From positions 434,001 to 498,000 of the forward strand of contig CP142737.1 in the NCBI GenBank assembly GCA_036630325.1: a DNA stretch of 64,000 bases, given 5' to 3'. The stretch comes from Vairimorpha necatrix. Lineage: Eukaryota. Position numbers and translations under genes: made by a program. Below, one piece after another: positions 35,315-59,434 of the stretch; position 1 is the stretch's first letter; each line of letters starts with the position of its first letter. The notes under the pieces were generated by a model that was not told the DNA's origin, did no database searches, and worked only from the letters and a program-made list of their open reading frames with translations.

Positions 35315-38300
35315 GTGATATAAATATATTAATATTCAAATGCTATATTGAACAACATATATGATTCAAACATAAAAAAATTTCATTTAACATATATATA
35401 TATATCATGAATATCCCCATAAAACTATAGATTTCAATTTTTCGGTGAATTGATGTCGGTGAATTATCCTAGAACCGAAATCTATTTCATTTCTGCATGA
35501 ATACGAACTTCATAGAGGAATTTCTACCCTATATTACAGTATAAAGCGTTATTACTATATAAACAAATCTTTAAAGAAATACCATAAGCCAATGTAAAAT
35601 TTGCGGAATTTATAAAAATAAGCATCCTAATAAACGTATCATTGGTAATATAGTATCATAAAGAAAATTTGAAAAGGGGAGTAACGATATTTTTGGTCCT
35701 TAAAGTCTTGATAATTTTATTACTTCAGAAAGGAAAGAGGTAGTATATATACTTACTATGACAGATAAATATTCCCGATATACAAAACTTAATTTCTTAT
35801 GCACTATAAATTTGGACTCGGTGTATATATGCTTTGAAAATTGGATTACAACTTTTGGAAAACCAACATCTATAATATCAGATAATGGACGCCAGTTTAT
35901 AAGTAAAACAACGAAAGATTATTTAATAAAAGAAAAAATTCTACATATCTTGATACCCCCATACACACCAAGCTCTAATGGTGTATCGGAAACAATAAAT
36001 AATACAATTTCATTCACTCTGAACTTTAACAAATATTTAAATATACGAGAAGTCGTTATAAAGGCAGAAAATCCGATTAATTATAATTATAATAAAACGA
36101 TTAAATCTTCTACATTTTCAATCATTAATGGATTTAACATTTATGACCAATTACAGAGAGATTACAACCATATTAGTATCTTAAAAGAAGAAAAAATCTA
36201 TTTGGTAAAAGTTGGAGACATTTGTAGAGAAAGAATATGTAATGCTAAAAAATTAGGACAAAAATGGAGCAAGAGGAAGAAGGTATTAGGTGTCGGCAAT
36301 AAAGAACTGGATCAAACCGAAATGAAATAGTAGATGGACTCATATTAAGAACATTAAACTCTATGGGGGCAGAATATGGTATTATAACCACATGGAAACG
36401 TTCATTTTCCCCAAAAACAAATTTCTTTAATATTTTTAAAAAAAATTATTGTTGTTTCCCAACAAAAAGGAAAAGGAGGTGCAGACAAAGGACACAAACA
36501 TTAAACAATTTATTGTTAAACAAACAAGGCCCAAGGAGCCTATTATAAGTACCGTACTAGAAGCCTACTTTCAACGAGGGTCCATCCCTCGTAACCACTC
36601 AAGCCCCAAAAGGATCGTAATTTCTTCTTACTTTTAGGAACTGGTAATCCTTGAATGCTTTTCATTTTTTCTCCATCCACACTTATTCCCTCTTTTAACA
36701 CAACATGACCTAGGATTTTTATGTGGGTATTTTGAATTTGCACTTTTCCTTTTTAAGTTTTAGTCATACTGAATTGAGCTTTTCTAGTACCCTCTTCTCA
36801 TCTCTCCTATGATCTTTTCCATTTTACTATAAATTAGTATATCATCTATATATATTGCAACAAATTTGAATAAGAATTCTTTTAAAATGTTATTCATCGC
36901 CCGCTGAAATGCAGCAGGTTCATTAACAAGCCCGAATGACATTTTTGTAAATTCAAATAATCCTTCTCTACAGGCGAAGGCTGTTTTTTTCGATATCACA
37001 CAAGGCCATATCAATTTGATGATATCCCGATTCTGCATCCAATCTTGTGAAGTAAGTAGCTCCCTCTAATGCTATAATAAATTCTTCTACTCGTGGCATT
37101 GGGTATGCATCTTTAATAGTCGCATCATTCAATCTTCTATGGTCCACACATGACCTGTGGTCTCCATTCATTTTTGGAACAATAATTATCGGACTTCTCC
37201 ATGCACTTTCACTAGATATTATGATTTCCATGTTCAATTATTCTTTTACTATTTTAGAGGCTATATCTTCTTTCGCACCACCTAACTTGTATAATTTTCC
37301 AAGTATTGGTTTATCATCTTTGTGATGATCTTGTGGTAACCTATGGCTTTACGCTTTGTCACTAACCCGGATTGGATTTCCATTCTATTATCCCCAGATA
37401 TCAAATTTAATTGTTTTAAACAGTAAATATGTCCTATGATACATGGAATAGTAATATCTCTTGTTATAATAAATTTATTTCAAATATCAACCCACTAACC
37501 AATCTTTATTTTAATTACTTTTTCTGCAATGATCTTTATTTTCGATCCATTTGCTGCCCAAAGCTGTTGTTTAGAACGATTAACAGCGGGTTTGTTTTTC
37601 AAAAGCTCTAGTCTAATTAGATTTATATCAGCTCCTTATCGATGAGCACTTTAAACTTAGCTCGTAAATCGTTTAAGGACGCTTTCTGAAGCGTAGTCCT
37701 ACTAACCTCGAACTTTGGAACAGAGCAATTATAAAAAAATTCCTTTAGATCTACCTTCTTTTTGACTTTTCTTGTCTTCTCTTATATCACTATAAAAACT
37801 ATATAATTTACATCCTGACACTATATGGTCTTTTCCCGCGAATCTAACACCTTATTTAGCCGTTACTCACAGGATCCCCTTAATTTTAAAGTGGTCTTTG
37901 CAACTTTTCGCTTTTGCATTCCTTTAACCTCCCCTGCGAAATTATTGTATAACATCTATCTTCCTCAGCGCTAACATTACTTAGGGCTTTGTATATATAT
38001 ATATATATATTCGTAAAATAATATGTCCTACTGATTATTAAAACTATGTTTGCTATATTGTTTTATAATCCTTTCAACACAAAGGCAATCAATATGCCTT
38101 TTGGAACATTCCCCCTTCGCGCCAATCCCGCCATCTTATCTAAATAGTTGACGAGAGATCCAGCATGATATTGGGAGCCATAAGTTTATCTATGGTCACT
38201 TTCGTCGCCATGTTACCAACAAACCTTTCTTATAAAATTGTCAGTCTTTCAAGTTAAAGGCCAATTGGCTGGGGGATTATCCAATCCCTTGCCTCTTTTT

Positions 38301-40141: not shown

Positions 40142-41814
40142 AAAATATATATATATATATAGAGTTCGTATTTTCATTAACAGACCTATGATGAGTAAAT
40201 ACTCAATGAAAGTTCATAGAGCATACAGCACGAAATATAGATCATATATCTGTAATCAAAATATTATACTGAAATTTCAACATGAATCAAAAAAATTTAA
40301 ATCCGCCTACGGCTAAATTCTACGACACCATGCAAATAATATATTACTTCTATCTATTTGTTGCAAACCAATAATTCATACTTAAAGGAAAAAAAATATT
40401 ATGTCAAATTTATTCGGTTTGCTTTTTACAAATAACATTATAATGTCTAAATTTAATTCTTACGTTGTGATTCTATCGATACAAAATTTCTAAATTGGCG
40501 GGAAACGAACTCCTTGCGTTAAAATTTATACACATAAAATTAATGAATTCCCCAGTTAAAATACTTTAATAGAGACGAGTTTGACATATATAATATAATT
40601 TGAAGAGATTTTTTTTATTATAACTTATAATTTGCTTTTTTGATTTTACTCTTTGTAAAATACACACTAAAAAGAAAGATTATTTGCTGGTGTTTCATAT
40701 TGTCATAATCAAGAATATAGGTCCAAATTTTCCTATACTAGATAAATTTCCAAAAGGATTTATTAACTTCCGAATTGGAGAAGTTCATAACATTTCTTAA
40801 AATCTGTAAATAGCAAGATCGGCGAGTAATATAAACATATGAAATAGTAAAAATCATTATAGTATTACATTCTTTATAAAGAAATAGAACTTCTATAAAA
40901 AAATTGATAAAAAAGTCCATAAAGTATCTTTATAAATCTTGTAAAAATAATATATACTCTAATATTTTTGAATAAAAAACCTAACTGTAAATCTCATAAA
41001 GATGCTTAGAGAATTATCCAACAAATGTGGTCGAATATGGAAGTTTGATTATATGAAAAGACAAAAAGATGTGGTTAACATGTATAACATTTAACATGTT
41101 ATAATCTACTTTCACGAAGTTAAAAATATATACGTGACTAAGTATAGAAGATCTTATTTTAATTGATCAGAAATAAAGTCGAGACGAAAATATCTAAATA
41201 TTTTAAAATACCCCGATACCAGGTATTTCTAATTTGACAAGAAGAAAAAAGAAAGGACATTGGAGAAGCTGAAATTTCAATCAGGATAGACTTACCATAG
41301 TTGTGAATGAAGAGTTAAGAAATATTATTCTTTTACTTTAAGAAATGAATATGATCATTTAATAGTTTTAGAGAAGACACAGGATGAAAAAAGGTCAAGT
41401 TACTACTAAAGAACGATAAAAAAAAAACTAAAAATTAATTTTTTTTCGAAGAATACATCCAATATTTTTCGCTACAAAGGCGTTGGTGTATCTCCTTTTG
41501 GAACAAAGATTAGAATTACGATCACAAAAGATGCTAGAGAGGAATACGTGGGCAGACTCTAAGTGCACTGGCTAAGAATATATTTGCTAAAGAAGTGGTA
41601 TGTTTATGAGAATAGTAGTATGTCAAAAGATTTTATAAGCATTTATCATATTAGTATTAAAAATTGAAATTCAAAATTTATAAGCGCTCCTAAATATAAG
41701 TGCTATCAACATCTAACATCTAGGAAAAATGCACAATTATATGAATTATTTAAATCTTTTTCAAAATTAAAAAAAATTTACAAATGTATTAACAATAGAA
41801 GAGCTTTGTATATT

Positions 41815-44601
41815 AGGTTGGTGTCTATATACTATATAAAAAATTAACCCCTTTCGCTTGTATACTCCCTCAACATGGCACTCGGTATGGAACTGAAAAT
41901 GAAAGGATTAATATTCAAAATTGTTAAGACCAAGGCAGACTTGAAATATTGGAGTTACAGTATAACCCCCATTATATTATCCAAGACAAGGAGAAGATTG
42001 AAATCTTCTTATGATTTTTGAGTGGGAGGCCCAAATTCTACTTACACAAATAGAAAAATCTATAAATGTAATATGAAGCAACTAAAAGGGGAATTGAAAA
42101 AAATGACAGAGAAAAATTACACTTTTTAAAGTACTAGAAGCTAGACAAAAGTTGAATGAACCAGTGAGAGAATGACTAGCAAGAGTTATAACTATTGCTT
42201 ATGATTCGGGCATTAGGAAGAAATCGCCAATTAAATAATTTTAAGGACATTTTATTATAGAAGGATTTGTAACATTTAGAGACTACTTTTCCAACCAGTC
42301 TCTATTCGAGGATTACTCTAATAAGATAGAATTATTAAGGAGGAAAGAATACTTAATGAAAAAAGGAAAATTTGGAAATAAAAAATCCATTGGGTTAGCA
42401 TTAAGCAAAAAATAATCAACAAATATGTTTCAGAAGAGAACAAAATATGTACTTAAAAAATTATAATTAACAATCTACAAACACCATTAGGAGAAGTCAA
42501 GACAACGGTAGTATGTATTGCAGGCGATAAAATATATGCAATAGTAGATATTAGAAGTAATTGTAATTTAATTAGTTGGAAGCTGGTAGAAGAAAAGATA
42601 TTTCTTAACAACAAAATAAAAGTGACTACTAAAACTAATATCTTTGGACAAGAAAACACTTTAACAGAGTAAGTAGAAATAACTTCACCTTATATAACAT
42701 CCAAATAACGATCAACTTCAACATTATGACCAATATTCAGTTCATTTTTTTGATTGAACCCCTAACTATTGTAAATGTAAAAAAATTGAGACATGAGATA
42801 GGTGAACTTGAGAAGAAGGGTTGTAAAGTATTTAAAGTAAACCATCAGAAGGTTCTAATAAAATAATAGGCACAATAAATACAAAAGAAGTAACCTGAGT
42901 CAATGTTAAAAAAAAGAAATATACCAAATGGGGCATAAAAGGTAACTGAAAAGCAATAACAAAGCTATTAAATTCAAGTTATATAAAAAGACAACCTAGC
43001 CATGATGCAATCATGCCCCCAGTAAAAACCCCCGATGAAAATATAGAATATCTGTTACAACAGATGGTTAAATAAAATCGTAGAGGACAATTTTTACTCG
43101 ATCTCAAAAATAAATGAAACTATCGATATGACACAGAGCAAAAAGATTTTCACAGTATTAAACCTAACGGATAAATTTTTCCAAATTAAAATTGATTCTA
43201 AGGATAAATTTAAAACATCCCTTTATTTAAGAACAATTTGTATCAAAGTACTAAAATGCCATAAGGTTTAAAGAATTTACCTGCAATTTTTCATAAGATA
43301 ATGGACAACATCTTATGCGATTCATGAAAACTAAATAAAAGGCCTATATAGACGACATAATTGTATATGGCGATCCCGAAAAGAGCTGATCAGAGCTTTT
43401 TAGAAGTTCTACAATAAGTTATAGGAAAAAAATGCATTATAAATGTACAAAAGTAAACTTTTGCCATCTAAGATCAACGAGTCAACTCAAAGACCAAAAA
43501 GAGAACATCAGAGAAAGATTTTAGATTTTAAAGTACCAAAAATAAGAAAAACCTACAAAAAAAACTAGGATTTGCTAATTACTATACAAAATATATCGCA
43601 CGGCTAGCAACAGTTTCGCAACCATTATATGATGCACTTGATAATCTTTAAAACAAAGATTAATTATAATGGAATGAAGAATGTGAGACGCATTTTGCAA
43701 CATAAAACTATAGATAAATTCTGTCATAGCAACAAACGTAACAGACTTTACAAAACTTATTGTTCTTACAATAATTACTGCTATAACGGAATCAAGTGCG
43801 GCTTTTAAGAATTTAAAGTTGGTGAACTTATGACTATTGATTGGGGATCTTAAAAAAACTGCCTGAAGCGAATAAAATACTTATTAACTATGAAGGAATA
43901 TCTAGCAATGGCTTGGGGAATAAAGCACTATAAACTATATCCTTGGACTTGGTTTAAAACTAATAATCAAATACACTGCCCACACAGTTCCTAAACTAAA
44001 CATATATTTTATAATATGAAATTAGAACATAGGGTAAAAACTTTAAAGCTTTGTATGATATTCCAAATATCATAAAAATAATTTATAAATATTTCCCGCC
44101 AAATTCTTCCAGTTTTCCCTCCAACATTTATTTAATAATTTTATCCGGAGAGGGGTACGGAGTAATGGAAAGAAGATCTTATATTAATAATAAAAATATT
44201 TTACATACTTTCCTAAGTGGTGGATACCACACTTTGGTTCCCCGATACACTACAAGAAAGGCACAAAAATCATTGAGGCCGATGTATCAAATAGAACAGA
44301 TGAGCATTCAAACCGAACTAACGATTTGAAGTGCCCAAAAGATGAGCTCATCGATTCTAAAGGTACACAGTATTATTAAGTAAATAACACAAAAACAAAG
44401 AACATATCGCCAGTCGAAGATAGGCCAGCGCTTCCTGAGGATGCATATAAAAAGTTACAAACTATGGTGGAAGAGATACAATGCTTCATGCTATAAAAAG
44501 AAAATATCAATGGCCCAAATAAAACGAATCAATTGTTCAATATCTTAAACGTCGTAAACCTTGTCAATGTAATCAATAAAAGACACAAGGAGAAAAAAAA
44601 T
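41815..44601 (+). mobile_element. Heavily decayed Ty3/Gypsy element related to the 63-bp-LTR element
   Basis: ..CTCAACA-TGGCACTCGGTATGGAA junction near 41870-41892 matches the LTR/PBS at 55468; RT remnants 43.0-43.4 kb; RNase H remnants (EYLAMAWGIKHY); limits approximate. Confidence 0.75.
44054..44231 (+). mobile_element. Solo LTR (type G)
   Basis: TSD CTTTG; 5' hairpin TATGATATT-CCA-AATATCATA (start reads TA, not TG); ends TACCACA; internal GGGGTACG-ATG frame. Confidence 0.8.
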
Positions 44602-45133
44602 GGTACAATACCGTTTGGAACCCGCATTGAAAATTTGAAAGACCCTTTATACAAAAAAAACCAAAATTTTAAAAACAGATGAGTTTTTTATATGGAAAAA
44701 AATTAAAGTTCATTTATAAAATTTGAATAATGCATAAATGACGGTTGCCTTACTTGTTTTGTTTGCTGTATAAATGCGGCTTTTCTCCTTGAGGTAATGC
44801 AATATAATATATCATCATGTTCTATTGTGGTTACTGATCAATGGAGAACATATGTTGCTGTACAGATAAATCGCGCTGATAAGCACAGGACTATGAACCA
44901 CGTCGTCAATTTCGTTTACTTATACGATCCCGAGACACAATACCAAACAATAAAGAATTTGTTTTCGTTTCAAGAGATATATTTAGTAAGAATAAAATTA
45001 ATAGGACAACACTATGAGTACCTTTTATAGTTCCTTTGTCTTATAAAATACCCCAAACCGATGTAATAAAAATCATCTTTTTTGATTCAAAATAAATTTT
45101 AAAGTCTCTTTATATAATTTTTTTTATATTTAC

Positions 45134-48100
45134 TGTCAATTGCTTTATTTGTATTTTCCATCCCCTCTTTTGGAAATGGTTTTAAATAGTTTAAGTAGCC
45201 AATCAAATACGTCCATTTGTCGAAAGATGATTGGCTGGACTTGATGGGCTACGACACCCCCTCACTTAGTTTTTGACGTATCTCTTTTTACGTGACTTTT
45301 GTTAACTCTAAATTCTCCTTTGTTATTCATCGGCTTCACTAGATAAGCATCGTCAGATAAGATTTCTGATATTTTATACCCAACAAACATTTTGAGCTTA
45401 ATTTGTCTTTTCCGGGCAAACTTCTATAGATCATTACTGGTTCCCCGACTTCTAACTTTTCTTTGATGTCTCTTTTACCCTTAATTATGTCTTTTTTGTA
45501 TTTAATAAAATTTTTATTTCTTTTCTCTAGCAAGTGTTGTTTAGAATATCTTTTAAGAATTGTTCCAAGTTTCTTTTCTTTTTGTTTCTATCTGATGTCC
45601 ATATTTCATTATATACGGTGAAGTTCCTATAGCTCGATTAAACGAAAGATTTACAGCTAATGTTGCTTTTTTTAAGAATGGGCTCCAGTCACGTTCTCCA
45701 AATAATGACATTCTTCTTAATGTGTTTCTAAGAGTTTGATTTACTCTTTCGACTGCTCCAGTTGTCTGATGGTGTTAGGGAGAACCAAATTTCCATTTTA
45801 TATTATATTTTTGTTGTAGTGATAGTACTTCTTGATTACTAAATTCTAGTCCATTATCTGTCAAAATTCTCTCTGGTATTCCGTGCTTTTTTATTATTAA
45901 CTCTTCTACAGCACAATAAATTTCTTTTGAGCTTTTATTAGACAGTATTTTAGTCTCTATCCATTTCGTGTAGTGGTCAATTGCTACAAATACATATTTT
46001 GATCCAGTACTTTCATACATTTTCCCAAGTAAATCAATTTCCCAGAGTTCATTGGGTCTTTCCGATATGATTACTTTATTTTTAGTTTTAATTCTTGGTC
46101 CCCTCGACATAAGGCATATTGTACATTGGGCGCAAAATATTTCAATCTCTTTATGCATATTTTTCCATGCGTAATTTTGCAAAATCATAAATTTCATAGT
46201 ATTCGCGGAGCCATGGCCAGAGATCTTATGATATTCTGTCAAAATCTGTTTCTTATCTTCTACACTAAGTATTTGTGTATTTATGTGGTTTACTTGTTCT
46301 TGTTGAAAAAATCTGCTGAATCCATCCGCTATATTATGATCTCCTTTTACATGTTCTATTTTAAAGTCATAATCGGAAAGTTTTAATGACCATCTTAAGA
46401 GTCGGCTTGATAGGTCTTTTGTTTGCATTAGATAGACGAGTGCTTTATGGTCTGTTCTAAGGGTAAACTTTTTCCCTAATAGATAATGTCTAAAGTGACC
46501 TATTCCTTTTATTAGTCCAAGTAATTCTTTATCTGTTACTGAGTAGTTTTTCTGACATTTGTCTAGTCTTTTACTATAAGCCGCAATCATTTTTTCTTCA
46601 CCTTGTCCGTTATCCTGTAATAGAACGGCTCCTATTCCCGAATCTGATGCATCCGTCATGAGTATAAATTCCTTTTGAAAATCGGGCTGAGTCCTGATAG
46701 TACTTTTCCCCATTTCCAATTTTGTATTGTTAAAAGCTTCTATTTGCTCACTGTTCAGATATATCTTTTTATTTGAGCTTTGTTTTTCTCCCTTCAGTAC
46801 ATCATATAGTGGTCCAGTGAGGGTTGCTATATTTTTTATAAAGTATCTGCAATAATTTATAGTCCCCAGAAAGCCTCTAAGCTCTTTTATAGTGGTAGGT
46901 ATTGGGTAGGACTTTATTTGACTAATTCGTTCTGGGGCAACTTTTATGTATCCACTTCCTATGATATTTCCGAGTATTTTAATTTCATTTTTATAAAATT
47001 TACATTTTTTTAGGTTTAATGATAATCCGGCTGCTCTAATTTTACCCAATGCTATTTGTAAATGTTTATCATGCTCGTCTTTTGTTTTAGAATAAATAAT
47101 TATGTCATCTAGGTATGGTATGATAAATTTTCTATTTTCGCATCTGAAAATATTGTCCATAGCACGTTGAAATGTAGCCGGAGCATTGCACAGCCCAAAC
47201 GGCATCCTATTGTACTCATATAAACGACCTTTAAATGAGAAAGCTGTTTTCTCTTTGTCTTTTTCCTCCATGGGGAGCTGTTGAAATCCACTTGTGGCGT
47301 CTAGGATTGAAAAGAATGAAGCTTTGGAACAAGTATCTAAAATTTCGTCGATTCTGGGTGACATATAGGAATCTTTTATTGTAATAGAGTTCAAACCTCT
47401 ATAGTCTATACACATTCTCCAGGTTTTATCTGGTTTTGGAACCATGACTATCCTACTGCACCAAGGGCTTTTACTATCTCTAATTATGCCCAGCTCTAGT
47501 AATTTTTGGATTTCCTTTTCAATTATTTCCTCCTGCATAATTGGTATTCTACCATTTCTTTGACAGATTATTTTACCGCTATTAACTTGTATATTATGTT
47601 TCCCCGCTGTACATAAATTAAATTCTCCTATTTCGGTCTTGAATAAATCTTTATATTGTTCCTCGATTTTTGTTTTATTTAGTTCGTTGCAGTATCTAAC
47701 TTTTTTGTGGTTATCTGGTGATATTTCTGTAAATATCTCAGTGACTAAGCTTAAATTTCTTTTAATTACTTCAGATCCTAGAATTATGTATCTTGTATCT
47801 TGCATTATTAGTGGTGAGAATGTTATAGTTTTGTTTTTTATTTTTATCGTAACGTTCTTTAACTGTCCGATAATTTTTAGTGTATTATTACCTGCTCCTT
47901 TAACAATTCCTGAATATGTATTAATATGTTTATGCAGATCAATTGGTATATCTGATTGTCCGATGAGTGACACATCTGCTCCAGTATCCAATAAAACACT
48001 TTTCTTGTTATCAAAGATATAACCTTCTACGAAAAAGGGATTATCGCTATTTATAACTCTACATAAGGAATAAAAAATATCGTCGTTTATTTCGTTATCA

Positions 48101-49031
48101 TGTTTCTTTTCTTCTTCTTCGACTATGTTGATGCTACCAGATGATTTTCTCTTTTCTTCTTCAATAAATTTAGATAATTTTTTGCATTCTCTTGTTGCGT
48201 GGAATCCTTCTCCATGCACGATGCAATGTTTTTTGTTTAAGTGAGAATTTCATGATTGTCTCTCTCTGATAAATGACACCTTGTCATGTTTTTTGTTATA
48301 TGGTGTCTCTCTGCCATGTTTTTTGTTGTTAATTGGCCCTCTGCCATAATTGTAATTGAATGATGGTTTACGTCCGTATTCTTCTACTCTAGACAACATC
48401 TTATCTGGATATGGAATCCATGCTATTTCTTCCGCCATTTGGACAAATACTTCCCACGTCTCGGCCGATTTAGAAGCTTGGAATAATAATGATTTTATTT
48501 CAGGTGGGGATTTGTTAATAATCATTTGAAATAAAGCATTCAAGTAAATTTGTTTTCTTTCAGAGATGATCGTGGCTTGTGTCAACATTTTAGAGAAGTC
48601 TTCCCTTGTTTCTGGTATGGGGAGAGAGAGAAATCGGCTCAATGTTATGTCACTATCTTTATTCGCTCCAAATCTGGCCTTCAACATTTTTATAAAGTCT
48701 GCTAGGCTTATTAAGTTCATCTTTCCTGCTAAGACTTGAGATGCCCAGGATAAAGCATTCCCTTTCATTTTAAAAATAAGCGCTTTTTTTATTTGTTGTT
48801 CTGTCCACTCAGAGACCTCTCCCAACATCATTATATCTCGTATCCAGGTGTTTACATCTTCACCTGGCTCCCCGGAGAAATAGTTTGCATTATTTGCAGT
48901 TGTCGCCATGTCAATTGCTTTATTTGTATTTTCCATCCCCTCTTTTGGAAATGGTTTTAAATAGTTTAAGTAGCCAATCAAATACGTTCATTTGTCGAAA
49001 GATGATTGGCTGGACTTGATGGGCTACGACA
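45134..49031 (-). mobile_element. Ty3/Gypsy LTR retrotransposon (123-bp LTRs)
   Basis: LTRs 45134-45256 and 48909-49031 with one mismatch; TSD TTTAC; PBS TGGCGACAAC; purine tract AGTGAGGGG before the 3' LTR. Confidence 0.96.
45260..48936 (-). pseudogene. gag-pol of the 123-bp-LTR element
   Basis: Gag and pol in one frame separated by TGA (48250-48252); LDTGA, YLDD, MTDAS, integrase core; TAA at 45775 and later frameshifts; 3' limit approximate. Confidence 0.9.
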
Positions 49032-49786: not shown

Positions 49787-51223
49787 ATGTTTTTCGTGAA
49801 CTTGCTCATTGTTTTCATTAAAACAATAAGACCATTTACTGCTGTCATTGCAGAAGGAACATGCGAACAAATACCCGAAGATATTTGTAAGGCTGTAGGT
49901 AGACGAGGGGTTGTAGCTAATTCTACAAATATCAATGCCATGGTAAACTTATTGAATAAAATGAACATTGAAAAGGCCTATGTATTCGGGTGGGAAGATT
50001 GCCCCGAGACCATGGTATTGTATTCTAATGGAGCTCTTGTCCCATACATCAAAGACAGAATCAGTAGTAAATACGCAATGTGCATAGGTGATTGTCCATG
50101 TAGACCTAAAATACTAGGTGAATCTACTAAAGAATGTTGTGCTATTAAGGAAGAGAGACCTAAATCATGTTGCGGAGCAAAGAATGTAGAATCTAAGACC
50201 TGTTGTAGTACAGATAAAAGGGCCGAAAGTCTATGCTCGTGCAATCAGATGCTAGTCAACAAATCTGGTTTTACAATGAAAAACCAACCTCACGTGTCGT
50301 GTTGTAATACGCAAGAAACAACATCATTCTGTAACATTAAAGATCAAGAAGGTAAAATGACAGAATCCAAAAAGTGTTTTCTAACTCAAGAATCAGCGCC
50401 CCGTCAATTTGAAAGATATAAAGGTTCATGTTGTTACATTGACAAGAGATCGTGCTGTAAACAGACACGACCGAGAGCTTGCACTAATGATCGTAAAAAT
50501 AATTGTAGATGTCATTTAAATAAAAGACCGTGCTGCAGTTATGATTATAAACAGCATTGTTTTAAAACAAAAAGATGTTGTATTGATAAAAACTCATACA
50601 ATGATAAGTATCATAAGCGACGACCTTGTGATAATCGCTCATATTGCTTATCCTCAAGATCATGTTGTGATAATGAACACTACGAAGAATCTCATGGATC
50701 AAGACAAGAAAGCGAGTCTTCTTCGGACATTTATATTCAGAGCTCGGAAGAATATTGTGACGTGAAAATAGATAATTGCTTAGTACCTCCTACTATCGAA
50801 CATAATGAATATTTTCAAGAATTTTTTTATGCCGATGAAGAAAGAAAAAATAAAACGACGACAATAAAATCAAAATCTTTTGAATTTAAGACAGTCGAAG
50901 ATGGAAATATTTCTTTAGCAGAAAATGAACACACATATCAACACACAAAAAAAGAAATAGTAATTGACAAATGTGATGGTAAACTGTTGAAAATCCCTAG
51001 AAAATTATATGATCCATTCCTACTCTATCAAATTACTAGTAAACTCAGTTCCAAGCATCGTATGCCCGTGTGTCTATATATAACTGACGATGATTTATTA
51101 TTTGTGATGATAAATCATAAGATGTATCACGTTGACATAACATGTAGAAAGTTAGTACTTGAAGAAGTATGTAATAAAGATAGGGAAATGCTTCAATTGC
51201 ATCTCATAAGATTTAGAAATTAA
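49787..51223 (+). CDS. Secreted Cys-rich spore-wall protein, EnP1/SWP30-like
   Basis: Signal peptide; CCCC before ATG; C-terminal PRKLYDP..LSSKHRMPVCLY..LFVMI resembles the EnP1 C-terminal domain as recalled; central CC-rich region. Confidence 0.7.
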   Translation: MFFVNLLIVFIKTIRPFTAVIAEGTCEQIPEDICKAVGRRGVVANSTNINAMVNLLNKMNIEKAYVFGWEDCPETMVLYSNGALVPYIKDRISSKYAMCIGDCPCRPKILGESTKECCAIKEERPKSCCGAKNVESKTCCSTDKRAESLCSCNQMLVNKSGFTMKNQPHVSCCNTQETTSFCNIKDQEGKMTESKKCFLTQESAPRQFERYKGSCCYIDKRSCCKQTRPRACTNDRKNNCRCHLNKRPCCSYDYKQHCFKTKRCCIDKNSYNDKYHKRRPCDNRSYCLSSRSCCDNEHYEESHGSRQESESSSDIYIQSSEEYCDVKIDNCLVPPTIEHNEYFQEFFYADEERKNKTTTIKSKSFEFKTVEDGNISLAENEHTYQHTKKEIVIDKCDGKLLKIPRKLYDPFLLYQITSKLSSKHRMPVCLYITDDDLLFVMINHKMYHVDITCRKLVLEEVCNKDREMLQLHLIRFRN

Positions 51224-51520
51224 ATAAATACTTAGTGTAACATATTTTCTCAATACACAAAAAAAAACACTTTTCTTCAACACTTCTTTTTTTTCTGATA
51301 TATTACTATTAAAGTAATGACTTAAAAGTTTGAATTTGAATCTTATAATAATGTGTCTTTGTAAAGAACTCATGTCGTTTACAAGCGTGAAATATGCATT
51401 ATTTATTTTTTATGAAAATCATTATTAATAGATGTTGAGAATAGTAGACATAAGGGGTATTTAATAATATTATAGCTATTTATAGTTATTCAACATCCCG
51501 CCCGAAAATACGACTGCGGT

Positions 51521-52076
51521 CTACTGATCTTTTTTAAAATTTGGCTTTTTGAAACATTTTTTGATTCATGTCCCTGTTGTTTACAAAAACTGCAACTTTT
51601 CTTATTGGTGAGCTTATTCATTCTTGTTCTGCTTGTAAGTATTTTAGAAGTGTGAGCCAAAAATTCCTCCATATCAGTGTGTAGGCTTAACATCATGTGA
51701 CTTCCACATTTCCCATAGCAACAGTAAGGCTTAAATATTTTATTATCATTTTATCCGTGGCTCCGAGCCGTTTTAAGTCCTTTCCAAGTCTGCCTAGATA
51801 TTCAGTTACTGTTTCAGTGCTTTTCCTTGTGTTTGCACATACTTTTAAAACGGTGTCAGCTGTGAGTTTTTGGTCTTCGGCACATTTTTCGATGCCCTTC
51901 CATGTTGTAAAACCTTCTTGTAATATATACTCTCCCAAATCTGTACTTGCATTCCTAATTATATAATTGAATTTTTCTTCGTCTTTTAGATTGGACTGCA
52001 GGTTCAAGAGTCTTATTTCCATATTTAAAGTTGATCTACATATACTTTTAGTTCTTTGACTAGTTTCTGTTTCCAT
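51521..52076 (-). pseudogene. Second Gag-like gene with CCHC knuckle, downstream of pol
   Basis: Own CCC-ATG; RKSTETVTEYLGRL gag-like motif; CSFCKQQGHESK(K)C after restoring two 1-nt frameshifts. Confidence 0.75.
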
Positions 52077-52125
52077 TTAAGGGTAATAAATAAAAATTTA
52101 TGTATTTTGGTTTTATAACAAGCAA

Positions 52126-55100
52126 TCATATAGTTGGTACTGATTTGAGCTGAGAGTGGCTCTTTTTGATCAGTTTATCGTTTACTTTTACTAAGTAAGA
52201 GTCATTTTCTAACACTGTATGTATTATTCCCTCTTCAATGTATTTATCGTTGAGCTTGTCCTGTGCCTGCATTGGATTTTGTTGAATAAACACTTGTTCT
52301 CCAATTTCAAATTTTTCACGTGGAAGTTTTTTAAATTCTTTTCCGTATTTTGAATCTTTTTTATTCAATTCTTTCAATGTTTTATTATCAGGATCATCCC
52401 ATGCTTCGTTCGGGGTACAACCTATTGCTCTATTAAATGTATTGTTAATTTTATTTTCTACATCATATAAAATTTCTTCTATTGTTTCCTTTTGATTACA
52501 TTCTATTTTTTTTAATGCTTGCCAAATTTTCCTATGTAATCTTTCTATCCTACCATTAGACTGATGCTTGTCTATAGATATTTATGGTAATTAACTAACA
52601 TATTAGACATGATTTCTTTTATAGTTGTAGCTGTAAATTCTTTTCCATTGTCTGTAATAATTTTCTCAGGAACTCAATCTCTTTAAAAATTTCTGTTATT
52701 GCATTTCTACAAACGCTAGCTTTCTTTGATTTTAAGGGTTTAATCATACATCTACGTGTAAAGTAATCTATACAAGTCATAAGTGTCGTCTTCTAATCAA
52801 TAAACATTAGGTCCATTCCAAATATTTCTAACGGCCTTTGTGTTTCTACAAATTCTTCACCTCCTAAGCTTTTTTGATCGTTTCGGACACATGATTCACA
52901 GTTTTTTATATAATTTGTTATTGATTCTGTCATTTTTGGCCAATAATAGTTCTTTTTCAATTCGTAAGTCATGGCACTTATTCCACCATGCACGGTGTTT
53001 ACTTCGTGTGCTTTATATAAAATGTCTTTTCTTTCAAGAACTTCGGGGAAATATCTAATTTCATTTTCATTTACTTTATAGTACCACTTCCCATCCGAAG
53101 CGATTAATACTTTTTTATTTTTAGTTCTAAGTTCTTCAACTCCTTTTGGATCCTCATAAATCCTGCTAATTGCATCGGCGTCTTAGTTCTTTGCCTTTTC
53201 GATATTCAATTTCGAAATTGTAATCCTGTAATTTTTCTCTCATTCGTTCTAGTCGTAGGTTTCCAAAAATGTGTTTATCTTTCATAGATAAAATTGCAGA
53301 ATGATCTGTTATTACTTTAAACTTTTTTCCTCGTAGATAATAATCAAAGTGTGTAATACTCCAAGCCATCGCCAGAAATTCTTTTTCTATAATTCCATAT
53401 TTTTTCTCAGCATCTGTCAGTTTCTTTGATGCCCAATCTACTACTGCAATTTCGTTATTGTGTTCTTGTTGTAGGCAAGCACCGATTCCTGTATTTGATG
53501 CGTCGGTGGATAGTATAAAGAGTTTGTCGTAGTCAGGAATATGTCTAGCAATTTTACTGTTGATTCTTTCTTTAATAATATCAAATGCTTTTTGTTGCTC
53601 TTCCTTCCATATAAACTCATTCTTCTTTTTAAGTAATTCATAAAGCGGAGCAGATATTGTAGCTAGGTTTGAGATAAACCTTCTGTAATAATTGGCTAAT
53701 CCTAGAAATCGTTGTACCTCATTAATTGTAGTTGGTACTAAAATCTAATACCTTTTTTGATGTTGTTCTATTGGATATTGTTTCTTTCCATCGATCATCA
53801 TTCCTAATAATTTAATAGTTTCTTGTTTAAATTGTAATTTAGTTGGGTTAACCTTGAAGTTGTTTTTTTCAAGTATCGTCAAAACATTAGCTAGGTTATT
53901 GTCATGTTCTTCTTCTGTTGTTCCAAAAATTATTATGTCGTCTAAATAGACGCAACAAGCTGTTTCAAGGTGGTTTTCTAGTAATCTATCCATTATCATT
54001 TGAAACATGCCAGGTGAATTCTTAAAGCCTTGTGGCATCCGTGTGTATTGATATAGTTTATTTTTAAAATAAAATGCAGTTTTATATTTATGTTCAGGTT
54101 TCAGGTGTATTTGATAGTAGGCATCTGTCAGATCTATAACTGTAAAAAAAATTTTGCCTCGCGTGGCATCTACTATGTTTTGAATTACAGGTATTGTATA
54201 GTTGTTATCTTCAACTAGGTTATTCAGAAATTGCATATTGTTTGTAATTCTAACAGTGCCATCTGGTTTTAATACTGGTCTTATGGGATTACACCAAGCT
54301 GATGTCGAACATTCTATATATCCTTGTTCTAATAATTTGTTAATTGTTTCTTGTGCTCCTTTCATTAGGGCCTGTGGTATATTTCTGTATTTTATATTCA
54401 CTGTCTTACCTATCGGAGTGTTTATCTCACACATTATATCCGTGTATCCTTTACTTGTCTTTCCATCAAAAACCTTTGGAAATTTTCTTACAAGCTCCGA
54501 AAGTTCATTTTTAAGTTTTTTTACTTTATTTAAAGTTGGCCTGCCGATAACTATATCTTCATTGGAATTCTTAAAAGCTCCTACATAACATTCCTGAGTA
54601 AGTATAATATCATTGATTTTTAATGTTACCTCTACCTTTTTAGTCAGTTCTGTTACTACCCCAAACACGTTTTTTATTGTTGTATGTTCACAGGGCAATG
54701 CAATAAGTCCTCTTTCTTCTACTTTCTTTTCATTGATAATGTTTACACCTGATCCTTCATCCATAAAAGCGGAGATATTTACACTGTTTAGTTTTATCTC
54801 AGTTACATTATCACTTTTGTTATTATCTATAGGCTCTTTTACTAATTGATTAAATTTTTTCATTTCAGTTTTGTCAGTTTGTTTAATGGGTTCTTTATGT
54901 CTTGGCTCTGAAACGCCTTTTCTTCTCATTACTGTCTCTCTATTAGCTCTTATCTTTTTTACAGTTTTCTTAATATATTCCACTTCATCTTATCTTTTAG
55001 TATCATTTCTTTCTCTTTGTAAATATTACGTTCCATCAAACATTCTTGGATAATCAACATTGAATCTAAGTTAACACATGTATTCTTAATAAGCATTTTA

Positions 55101-55486
55101 GTAAATTCTTGAGGCAAGTTGGCTGCACTTGCCAGGGGAAGAACTCTTTTTATCCAAGTTGCTGTTGCTTCATTATATTTTTGTTTTGATTTTAAAATTT
55201 TCTCTAAAGCATTCCTTTCCATGTATTTTTTAATTCTTCCCTTAAATGTTCGCCATGTAATTTTTGTAAAATTTTCTTTGTTTGTGTATAAGAAATAAGC
55301 GGCTTCATCGTCTGAAAATAATAAGACGGTGTTTATTTTTTCCTCATCTACAATTATATTTTTGTCTTTAAAATATATCTCAAACTTCATGCAATCTACA
55401 AGTGCACTTTTTTAACTTAAGTTGGGTGCTTTCATCCTTATATACGAGTTTTCCGTACCGGGTGCCATGTTGAGAATAGTAGACAT
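52126..55486 (-). pseudogene. gag-pol of the 63-bp-LTR element, several frameshifts
   Basis: Fragments 54959-55390, 53745-54983, 53166-53369, 52793-52993, 52126-52377; ATG at 55486 in the LTR is in frame with 55390 across one TAA. Confidence 0.88.
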
Positions 55487-56739
55487 AAGGGGTATTTAAT
55501 AATATTATAGCTATTTATAGTTATTCAACAATAGAGTTTATTTCTAATTGATATTTGCTCGAACAAACATAATAATACTAATCTACATAAAAACTTTGTT
55601 TAGCATATTTTTACTAAAATTTATCTTAATCATATTTTTTTTTTTCTTGGCTTATATACTTATAAAATCATTTTTTTGTTGTAAAAGGTCTACGTATTAT
55701 TAGACGTAAAATTTTATGAGTTTAGAAGGATTTAGAAATGATATATTTATTTTAAATCATCAATTTGTATTTTGTAATTGACAATTCGTTATGTACGGTA
55801 ATATATCAATTAAATTTAAATTTTATGTTTTAATTCGTTTTGAATGAGTTCTACGATATATTTTATGATATATTTCGTAGGGACCAGGGTATACATCATA
55901 TCATGAGACTTAAAAGCATCGGCATTAGAGTATAGTTTTTTGTACTTACAAATTGGGATATGATACATTTGGATTCATTTCACCTTAGATCATTATTACT
56001 ATAAGTCACATCTATGTCAGATTAACAAACTCTGATTAAACTTTCTATTTTTATACAAACCCATTTTTGTGGCTATAAAGTCAATGATGGCATCATATTT
56101 TTTATATATCTACTTCTACTATATTACACCAATAATGTTAAATGGTTTTTATTTTTTCGTGTTTTAAAACACACCAATTTTATAACTTCATACTTATTGT
56201 GTCATTAAGATTTAATCTAGTTGAGATTCTCAAACTGATTTTTCGAAGAGCATGTATTATATTTTTATACATCTTTATTCGAATTATGTTTTTGTAAAAC
56301 TTAAATCCAATATATCATAAAGACATTTTTTAGAATTTTTTTAACATTTCCACAAAAAAAAACGAAAACATATTACTCATAAAAATGTGTATAATTAGTA
56401 TAAAACAATTGAACCTAAAACATTTAGAAGCTACCCCATTATTGTTTTTAGGTTGGTATGGTTTAATTTTCTATTTAAGTTTTGCTTAGATGTAATTTAT
56501 ACTTTTTTAGAAACCATGATCTTTCCTTTTTAAATTCACCCAGCACAGGTAGAAGTTTAAATAAAAAACAAGAAGAAGAACGAATCAAGTTGATAGCGTT
56601 ATAAAAAAAAGAATGCATACGCTAGTGTACTTTTAAAATATTAAGAAAAAACAATAATTAAAAATTAAAACAATAATACTTATATAAAAAAAATATGAAA
56701 GTAACAAATTGAAAATTCATCCAGGATATTTCAAATTTT

Positions 56740-58822: not shown

Positions 58823-59034
58823 TGCCATGTCTTGCGGTACCTTGTTGGTTTTTAAAAAGGAAATGTAAATAGATTTACAAGTTGAAGAGTAATTCATATT
58901 TATTTAAAAATAATTTTCTTAAATAGTTTTTTCTGAATCAAATCAAATATAATTGGTTACACGAGTACCAATTAAAACATTGATCTGAAACAACTATTTC
59001 CTTGAGTATAATTGGTCATAGTGAGGGTATGACA
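58823..59034 (-). mobile_element. Solo LTR of element A family
   Basis: Matches LTR 16584-16796 except for a 1-nt G deletion; TSD CTAAC. Confidence 0.96.
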
Positions 59035-59434
59035 CTAACAAAATATACCTGTATAATTATATATTTTTGTAGGGCTACTGTCATGTCATAATGACATATC
59101 ACATAAAATAAATCTGTCAAACATCTTATCACTGATCGGCAAAAGTCAATAAAAAAAACTTTAGAAAGATATTTATTATGTAAGATACAAACAATTAGTA
59201 TTCTTGTAAAACGTTATTAAATTAAAAATAAAAGAAAGGCATGTAATCTAATCAAGCAAGGCCAATAAAGCTTTCAGTAAGTTAAGCAATAAAAATATAT
59301 TTTAAGAGCATAAATACTTTTACTAACATAAATTAATATACAATTATATATGATGTAATATTTGTAGTATACATCACAAACTCACCTTGGAAAAGGTTTA
59401 GAATATTTTTATTATGTATAAGTCGACGTCAATT

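Follow-up and report, generated by a model that had tools for sequence, protein, structure and literature searches.

In retroviruses and long terminal repeat (LTR) retrotransposons, Gag is needed in large excess over Pol, and a molar surplus of Gag has been described as required (PMC5580714). Frameshifting, read-through, splicing and Pol turnover are the routes to this surplus given in the accessible text of the literature (PMC5580714, PMC12786077, PMC7175516). Ty1 and Ty3 use a frameshift, Tf1 and Ty5 a single open reading frame (ORF) combined with Pol turnover, and Copia, EVD and BARE1 a spliced gag-only mRNA; all of them possess a single gag gene. Microsporidian Ty3/gypsy elements are presented in the accessible text of Parisot et al. 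(2014, PMC4202319) as single-polyprotein elements with one ORF each, a view repeated in the accessible part of PMC13174016. A 4,098-bp Ty3/gypsy copy from Vairimorpha necatrix (minus strand, 55530-51433) differs from all of these in that a second gag gene, diverged from the first, lies 3′ of pol. The copy lies within a 64,000-nt stretch of contig CP142737.1 (positions 434,001 to 498,000), called the window below. The second gene is referred to as ORF2 and its product as Gag2, while Gag1 denotes the Gag part of the gag-pol polyprotein. This gag-pol + gag2 layout is very probably real. New is the second, paralogous capsid gene behind the integrase, a well supported architecture; the short LTR is already known.

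Elements of the Parisot set and the clade of the V. necatrix element are alike in having one gag-pol frame with the order protease (PR), reverse transcriptase (RT), RNase H (RH) and integrase (IN), a length of about 4 kb, and an ORF start in or next to the LTR. They differ behind pol. For the Parisot elements the polyprotein is the only ORF listed, and none has room for ORF2, whereas ORF2 is present behind pol in the window copy and in two relatives, L001 and L002. The word at the clade's junction of LTR and primer-binding site (PBS) was not found in the accessible part of the PMC4202319 supplement. Ty1i/p22-Gag of Saccharomyces, according to the accessible text of PMC5834202, resembles Gag2 as a Gag-related protein made from an internal promoter, the latter being putative for Gag2. 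Whereas p22 inhibits mobility and is a shortened product of the one gag, Gag2 has a full capsid gene to itself, placed behind pol. The env-like aORFs of plants (PMC7264820) and the ORF3s of bdelloids (PMC5408684) share position and strand with ORF2, are kept within lineages and are sometimes lost. They are env-like, enzymatic, coiled-coil or of obscure origin, and none is described as a capsid paralogue in the accessible text of these two sources. No gag-pol-gag element appeared in titles and abstract openings of the searched literature, a coverage outside which most subscription journals lie.

The window copy is a genuine Ty3/gypsy LTR retrotransposon of the Metaviridae type (Table 1). Its close clade comprises ten polyproteins with 45-60% identity; the eight with a full N-terminus are single frames of 1,003-1,136 aa, in which Gag1 and the part from linker to integrase are joined. 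The two LTRs are identical, 63 bp long and bounded by TG...CA; repeat comparison gave 64 nt, one base of which is common flank. The pentamer ATAGA flanks the element on both sides as target-site duplication (TSD), the chance of a given 5-mer with such composition being 0.002. Contigs from two public runs (two studies) represent the empty site: they join 51426 to 55530 and omit 4,103 nt, corresponding to the element plus one TSD copy. Repeat comparison and empty site bear out the LTRs and TSD proposed in an earlier note, which had been drawn from the letters of this DNA only. Its remark that the LTR is unusually short does not hold, as LTRs measure 59-69 bp in five of five clade members (start of L006 set by eye) and 45, 50, 73 and 90 bp in four of the 51 elements listed in PMC4202319 (accessible part). 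Pfam searches on pieces of the window detected RT, RNase H and the integrase zinc domain in the gypsy order PR-RT-RH-IN. Protease and rve stayed below the cut-off in the broken window copy, and the order was confirmed by relatives. Neither Gag piece of the window matched any gag family of Pfam. With three in-frame stops and six frameshifts in total, the window copy is dead.

The pol frame stops at 52126, and the ATG of ORF2 follows 49 nt later at 52076, in agreement with the roughly 50 nt noted before. The CCC that the earlier note had placed directly at the ATG does precede it, but TTAA lies between (AAATTT...CCC-TTAA-ATG). Up to its stop at 51521, ORF2 measures 556 nt in three frames, two bases under 185 codons plus stop, which matches the predicted product of about 185 aa after restoration of two frameshifts. 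ORF2 contains the gag-type motif ETVTEYLGRL and a CX2CX4HX4C zinc knuckle from 51594. The related motif QKYNEATATWIKRV occurs in the 5′ Gag, and the knuckle pattern is absent from every frame of that Gag; in these points the first reading was correct.

Judged by its protein relatives, ORF2 is a real gene family. An exhaustive protein search with ORF2 returned 14 matches, none of them of gag-pol polyprotein size. P0007 and P0012, long repeat proteins of bacterial appearance, were dropped as relatives. The other 12 are stand-alone proteins of 121-196 aa with a Met start, aligned from the start equivalent to 52076; ten have intact frames of 161-196 aa, and two come from named microsporidia. The full knuckle is present in five, CxxC only in one and no knuckle in four, and two sequences are short. 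All species-named relatives of the element's proteins are microsporidian (Nosema granulosis, Pancytospora philotis, Enteropsectra breve). A word-based protein search with ORF2 yielded no match and one with the ORF2 alignment just four proteins; scans of viral contigs with ORF2, pol and the pol alignment retrieved no relative. Small "hypothetical proteins" of microsporidia, e.g. NGRA_2595 and PAPHI01_2787, are probably transposon capsids.

DNA of the clade is represented by L001, L002, L005, L006 and the window. L003 and L004 (distant, GC-rich) and L006 (ending before the integrase) were excluded from the layout test. Three of the four elements with a readable interval between pol and LTR carry ORF2, namely the window copy, L001 and L002. 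L002 is a whole element of 3,949 bp with identical 66-bp LTRs and a gag-pol with one frameshift in RT. Behind its pol follow 17 nt with AAATTT...CCC-ATG, an ORF2 of 162 aa with no knuckle, the polypurine tract (PPT) and the LTR. The order in L001 is pol end, 57 nt, an ORF2 of 183 aa with knuckle, PPT, a 59-bp LTR and gag-pol. L001 (1-3383) is circularly permuted about one LTR, which could stem from a tandem, from a circle with one LTR or from an assembly in which several copies collapsed. Pol of L001 and L002 shares 46-62% identity with the window copy, depending on the segment. ORF2 of L002 is 32% identical to that of the window, and the pairwise BLASTP match of L001 is not significant; a profile made from the 12 unplaced relatives alone scores the ORF2s of window, L001 and L002 at 88-136 bits. 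The expectation that ORF2 always lies between pol and the 3′ LTR stands for these three elements and fails for L005, an intact element that lacks it. In L005, 85 nt separate gag-pol from the LTR and end in KNKKCETPKAI-stop, approximately the last 12 codons of an ORF2, matching the ORF2 end of L002, QNKKKSKTQKAI-stop. The RT-RNase H tree places L005 beside L002 with 100/100 support, and a grouping of the three ORF2 bearers was rejected (approximately unbiased test, p 0.0245; group chosen after the tree had been seen). L005 is best read, from its remnant and its place in the tree, as an ORF2 deletion or an assembly chimera, the latter being possible because no TSD is present. L005 and L006 sit in genome bins labeled Erysipelotrichales and Clostridium and are probably stray eukaryotic contigs. 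Of the 15 loci found by a pattern search for the LTR-PBS junction, not one matched gag-pol or ORF2. The PBS-like 9-mer starts with TGG and has a single mismatch in a sixth, decayed clade member; the window contains no tRNA gene with which it could be compared. A heavily decayed clade member lies in the window at 41810-44612 (plus strand); it retains a PBS-like junction at 41873 and remnants of gag-pol and lacks the 3′ part.

Both Gags are supported as having a predicted capsid fold. The AlphaFold model of P0001, an ORF2 relative (32% identity to the window ORF2, E 1.4e-14), reached a pLDDT of 87.8. Capsid-type domains fill the first 16 of the best 50 VIA matches listed, among them MOAP1 (Z 8.4, root-mean-square deviation (rmsd) 2.4 over 88), Arc (Z 7.7) and Copia (Z 7.7, rmsd 5.2 over 136). 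The model aligns with both capsid lobes over residues 6-159. Foldseek ranked the capsids of dArc1, Arc, HIV and Copia at the top, and retroviral Gags came first in a viral structure library. For Gag1 of the window itself, the model (pLDDT 71.1) likewise has capsid-type domains in the first 16 rows, with a best Z of 7.9. The structure prediction that the earlier note had proposed for both Gags returned capsid-type matches in the lead for each, for Gag2 by way of the relative P0001. In the ESM Atlas, Retrotrans_gag clusters made up 24 and 20 of 30 matches, with scores up to 0.92 and 0.94. An annexin identity of ORF2, raised by a profile comparison with PDB sequences (E 8.6e-7), was rejected, with no annexin among the 50 structural rows listed.

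Gag1 and Gag2 are homologous on the evidence of profile comparison. Their profiles match in HHalign at 94.5% (E 7e-8, score 52.7), and at 90.5% after removal of the strongest bridging sequence. Controls gave 0.2% and a score of 12.2 for the reversed profile, and 39.2% and 31.1 for the best of 60 block shuffles; Gags of the other two gypsy families of the window matched Gag2 at 8% and 3%. A tree of 27 sequences sets the Gag1 and Gag2 groups apart with 97/92 support, and a pairing of each element's Gag2 with its own Gag1 was rejected in a tree test. The separate groups fit one duplication before the spread of the clade. Of the 13 polyproteins compared, 12 have no knuckle. The one that has it, P0027 (Nosema granulosis, KAF9760719.1), falls outside the clade in the RT tree, where it is, besides P0026, the nearest named single-Gag lineage. 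Its single knuckle-bearing Gag aligns along the whole of Gag2 (HHalign 91.9%; 47.8% with the knuckle removed, at most 2.4% in 100 shuffles). Unlike the clade, P0027 has this Gag fused to pol; it is known here as a polyprotein, the 3′ region not included. The simplest path would lead from an ancestral capsid-nucleocapsid-pol arrangement through a gag duplication to the loss of the knuckle from Gag1, the direction being conjectural. A capture of Gag2 from a sister lineage is a possible alternative origin.

The gag-pol start codon lies inside the 5′ LTR. All five clade LTRs hold CCC followed by ATG a few codons ahead of the PBS, and the ATG in the LTR is taken as the gag-pol start because a Met is missing at the LTR-PBS junction of one relative. 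CCC-like motifs right before start codons, with 5′ untranslated regions under 7 nt, are reported for microsporidia in the accessible text of PMC2803860, as are AAATTT-like signals at genes that are highly expressed or encode ribosomal proteins. Within the 15 nt that precede the ATG, CCC was found in three of three ORF2s, seven of nine host genes and 133 of 2,382 window ATGs (5.6%). An AAATTT-like word stands upstream of three of three ORF2s vs none of five gag-pol starts (Fisher p 0.018), a comparison weakened by a background of 25.5%, by gag-pol windows of 34-51 instead of 60 nt and by the kinship of the elements. These start signals suggest a strong internal promoter ahead of ORF2. In crude scans of three elements, the region behind Gag1 showed no in-frame -1 slippery site that is conserved; a GTAAGT donor was present neither in the window element nor in L002 but once in L005.

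A compact Ty3/gypsy clade, most likely all microsporidian, would accordingly divide Gag between two genes, as follows. The LTR promoter would drive a genomic RNA translated into a single Gag1-PR-RT-RH-IN polyprotein with no intervening stop or frameshift, so that Gag1 and Pol arise 1:1, as the single frame of the relatives implies. The host-type start signal behind the integrase stop would drive a short mRNA whose end lies in the 3′ LTR. This mRNA would encode Gag2, predicted to be a complete capsid protein with both domains and either a knuckle or a basic tail, and Gag2 would serve as the bulk shell and RNA-binding protein. Gag1 would retain its capsid domain in order to carry Pol into the same particle. 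The subgenomic RNA would contain no PBS and hence be no template, and Gag2 could act in trans on copies devoid of it. The lineage may have duplicated its own gag once, long ago, to give Gag2, and the knuckle would later have been lost from Gag1. That ORF2 supplies bulk capsid/nucleocapsid from an internal promoter is probable, the subgenomic mRNA, the Gag2 surplus, co-assembly and trans action being its presumed components. Slightly favored on balance is the wider proposition that gag duplication is how an old Ty3/gypsy lineage of microsporidia meets the Gag:Pol requirement, in a manner not described so far, with a knuckle-less packaging tag fused to Pol, a shell gene of host style and particles of two paralogous capsids. 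If true, a conserved second gag in env position would be a further route to the Gag surplus, and the capsid gene would be naturally split into a Pol-tethering and a shell-building copy.

Several observations weigh against the two-gag interpretation. None of the 51 A. algerae consensus elements with a given LTR length has room for ORF2, by arithmetic on the accessible table of PMC4202319, and the two other gypsy families of the window carry none. L005, with an intact gag-pol and identical 67-bp LTRs, implies that ORF2 is not needed in cis or that the contig is chimeric. The 12 ORF2 relatives are known as proteins outside any DNA context; five have the full knuckle, which is present in L001 and missing in L002. 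Fold scores are middling (best Z 8.4-8.6), with no Foldseek match at E<=0.001. Z being middling for helical proteins, the capsid claim is carried by the agreement of the match lists. Shared-feature counts in the ESM Atlas are low (101-124 of 256), and Pfam Retrotrans_gag matched weakly in two of 13 members (best E 0.0068). One contig of run X1 departs from the element sequence at 52111, just behind pol.

Among other explanations, Gag2 could be a copy-number control factor like Ty1 p22, an internally promoted capsid relative that poisons assembly. The precedent of an internally promoted, Gag-derived inhibitor (PMC5834202, accessible text), the identical LTRs of L005 despite its lack of ORF2, and the predicted capsid fold kept by Gag1 speak for such a role. 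It is unlikely all the same: p22 comprises only the C-terminal part of the Gag it derives from, whereas the Gag2 model spans both lobes, Gag2 rather than Gag1 bears the knuckle, and ORF2 is maintained as a separate intact gene across elements as distant as L001 and L002. A little less likely again is a dispensable accessory paralogue, e.g. an RNA chaperone or a helper for deleted copies, with the surplus obtained via Pol turnover as in Tf1. Tf1 and Ty5 do gain it from one ORF (PMC7175516, accessible text), ORF2 is lost in L005, the knuckle varies, and in run X2 the 5′ end and ORF2 exceed RT/RNase H in contig depth, which is no copy number. The intact frames in ten of 12 relatives and the whole two-lobed fold suggest selection for assembly instead. 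Improbable, too, is a structural Gag2 with no promoter of its own, translated off the genomic RNA by ribosomes that re-initiate or enter internally behind the pol stop. The spacers are short (49 nt in the window, 57 nt in L001, 17 nt in L002), and multi-gene and read-through transcripts are common in microsporidia (PMC2803860, accessible text). Against this, stop and start overlap in none of the three, spacer length varies while CCC and AAATTT-like words persist, and re-initiation would presumably yield Gag2 below the level of Pol. That ORF2 is specific to the window copy, being either env-like or a piece of some other element that was nested or captured, is very improbable and largely refuted: the decay of that copy and the insignificant window-L001 match would suit it, but ORF2 has no terminal repeats, ends or TSD of its own, occupies the same place in L001 and L002, is homologous to the clade's Gag1, and is predicted to form a capsid fold in place of a transmembrane segment, with no hydrophobic stretch in 15 of 15 ORF2-type sequences (19-residue Kyte-Doolittle maximum 1.03). 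The gag-pol + gag2 layout put forward in the earlier note is retained, with capsid folds predicted for both Gags, recurrence in two distant elements and no ends of ORF2's own; the internal promoter and the capsid surplus that the note proposed are putative, suggested by sequence motifs.

Table 1. Features of the Ty3/gypsy element and its flanks in the window, from right to left.
Feature	Position	Strand	Basis or remark
TSD ATAGA, right copy	55531..55535	+	repeat comparison; empty site
5′ LTR, 63 bp, TG...CA; holds TATA-like word, CCC and gag-pol ATG (55486)	55468..55530	-	
PBS-like 9-mer TGGCACCCG, adjoining the LTR; gag frame runs through	55459..55467	-	same 9 nt in 5/5 clade members
Gag1: predicted capsid-fold domain, no zinc knuckle; in-frame stop 55414-55412; frameshift near 54990	54990..55486	-	
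Basic linker and PR (DEGS 54761), RT (YLDD 53948), RNase H, integrase	52126..54989	-	2 stops, 3 frameshifts
49-nt spacer: AAATTT (from 52099) and CCC ahead of ORF2 ATG	52077..52125	-	microsporidian-type start signal, putative promoter
ORF2/Gag2, ~185 codons, predicted two-domain capsid fold and CX2CX4HX4C knuckle (first Cys 51594)	51521..52076	-	frameshifts near 51698, 51556
Short polypurine tract GGGCGGGA	51496..51503	-	G-runs at same place in L001, L002, L005
3′ LTR, same sequence as 5′ LTR	51433..51495	-	repeat comparison
TSD ATAGA, left copy	51428..51432	+	repeat comparison

Contigs from public runs differ from the window copy by 65 substitutions in 4,309 nt (1.5%; seven closest long records). 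One-base indels occur in them at 54990, 52674, 52580, 51698 (both runs) and 51556 (one X2 contig), i.e. at five of the six window frameshifts among the indels listed, with 53 further indels beyond those. Other copies appear continuous at these places. At a divergence of this kind, the probability of identical 63-bp LTRs is 0.15-0.38; their identity is compatible with the divergence and gives little information on age. In run X2, two contigs span the junction from the pol end into ORF2, with an identity of about 84-88%. X2 contigs reach a depth of 148-428 at ORF2, at the pol end and at the 5′ end (51422-52291, 55250-55597) vs 0-20 across much of RT/RNase H. Although contig depth does not give a copy number, internally deleted copies with ORF2 retained may underlie this pattern.

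The window has about 29% GC and is gene-sparse. Some of its ORFs are presumably EF-1 alpha, Spo11 and a valyl-tRNA synthetase of microsporidian type. The element was inserted about 210 bp behind the stop of a cysteine-rich ORF of 478 aa (49787-51223, plus strand), which shows repeated CC motifs and no Pfam match at the cut-off. A second gypsy family is present at 16577-20781 (minus strand), with 222-bp LTRs, one in-frame RT stop and no ORF2; its pol stop lies inside the 3′ LTR and its gag ATG in the LTR, too. A solo LTR of this family is located at 58823-59037 (99.5% identical). The third family, at 45134-49031 (minus strand), has 123-bp LTRs and no ORF2. More decayed gypsy pol fragments occupy 15600-15900, 28100-28800, 30600-31550 and 35500-37300.

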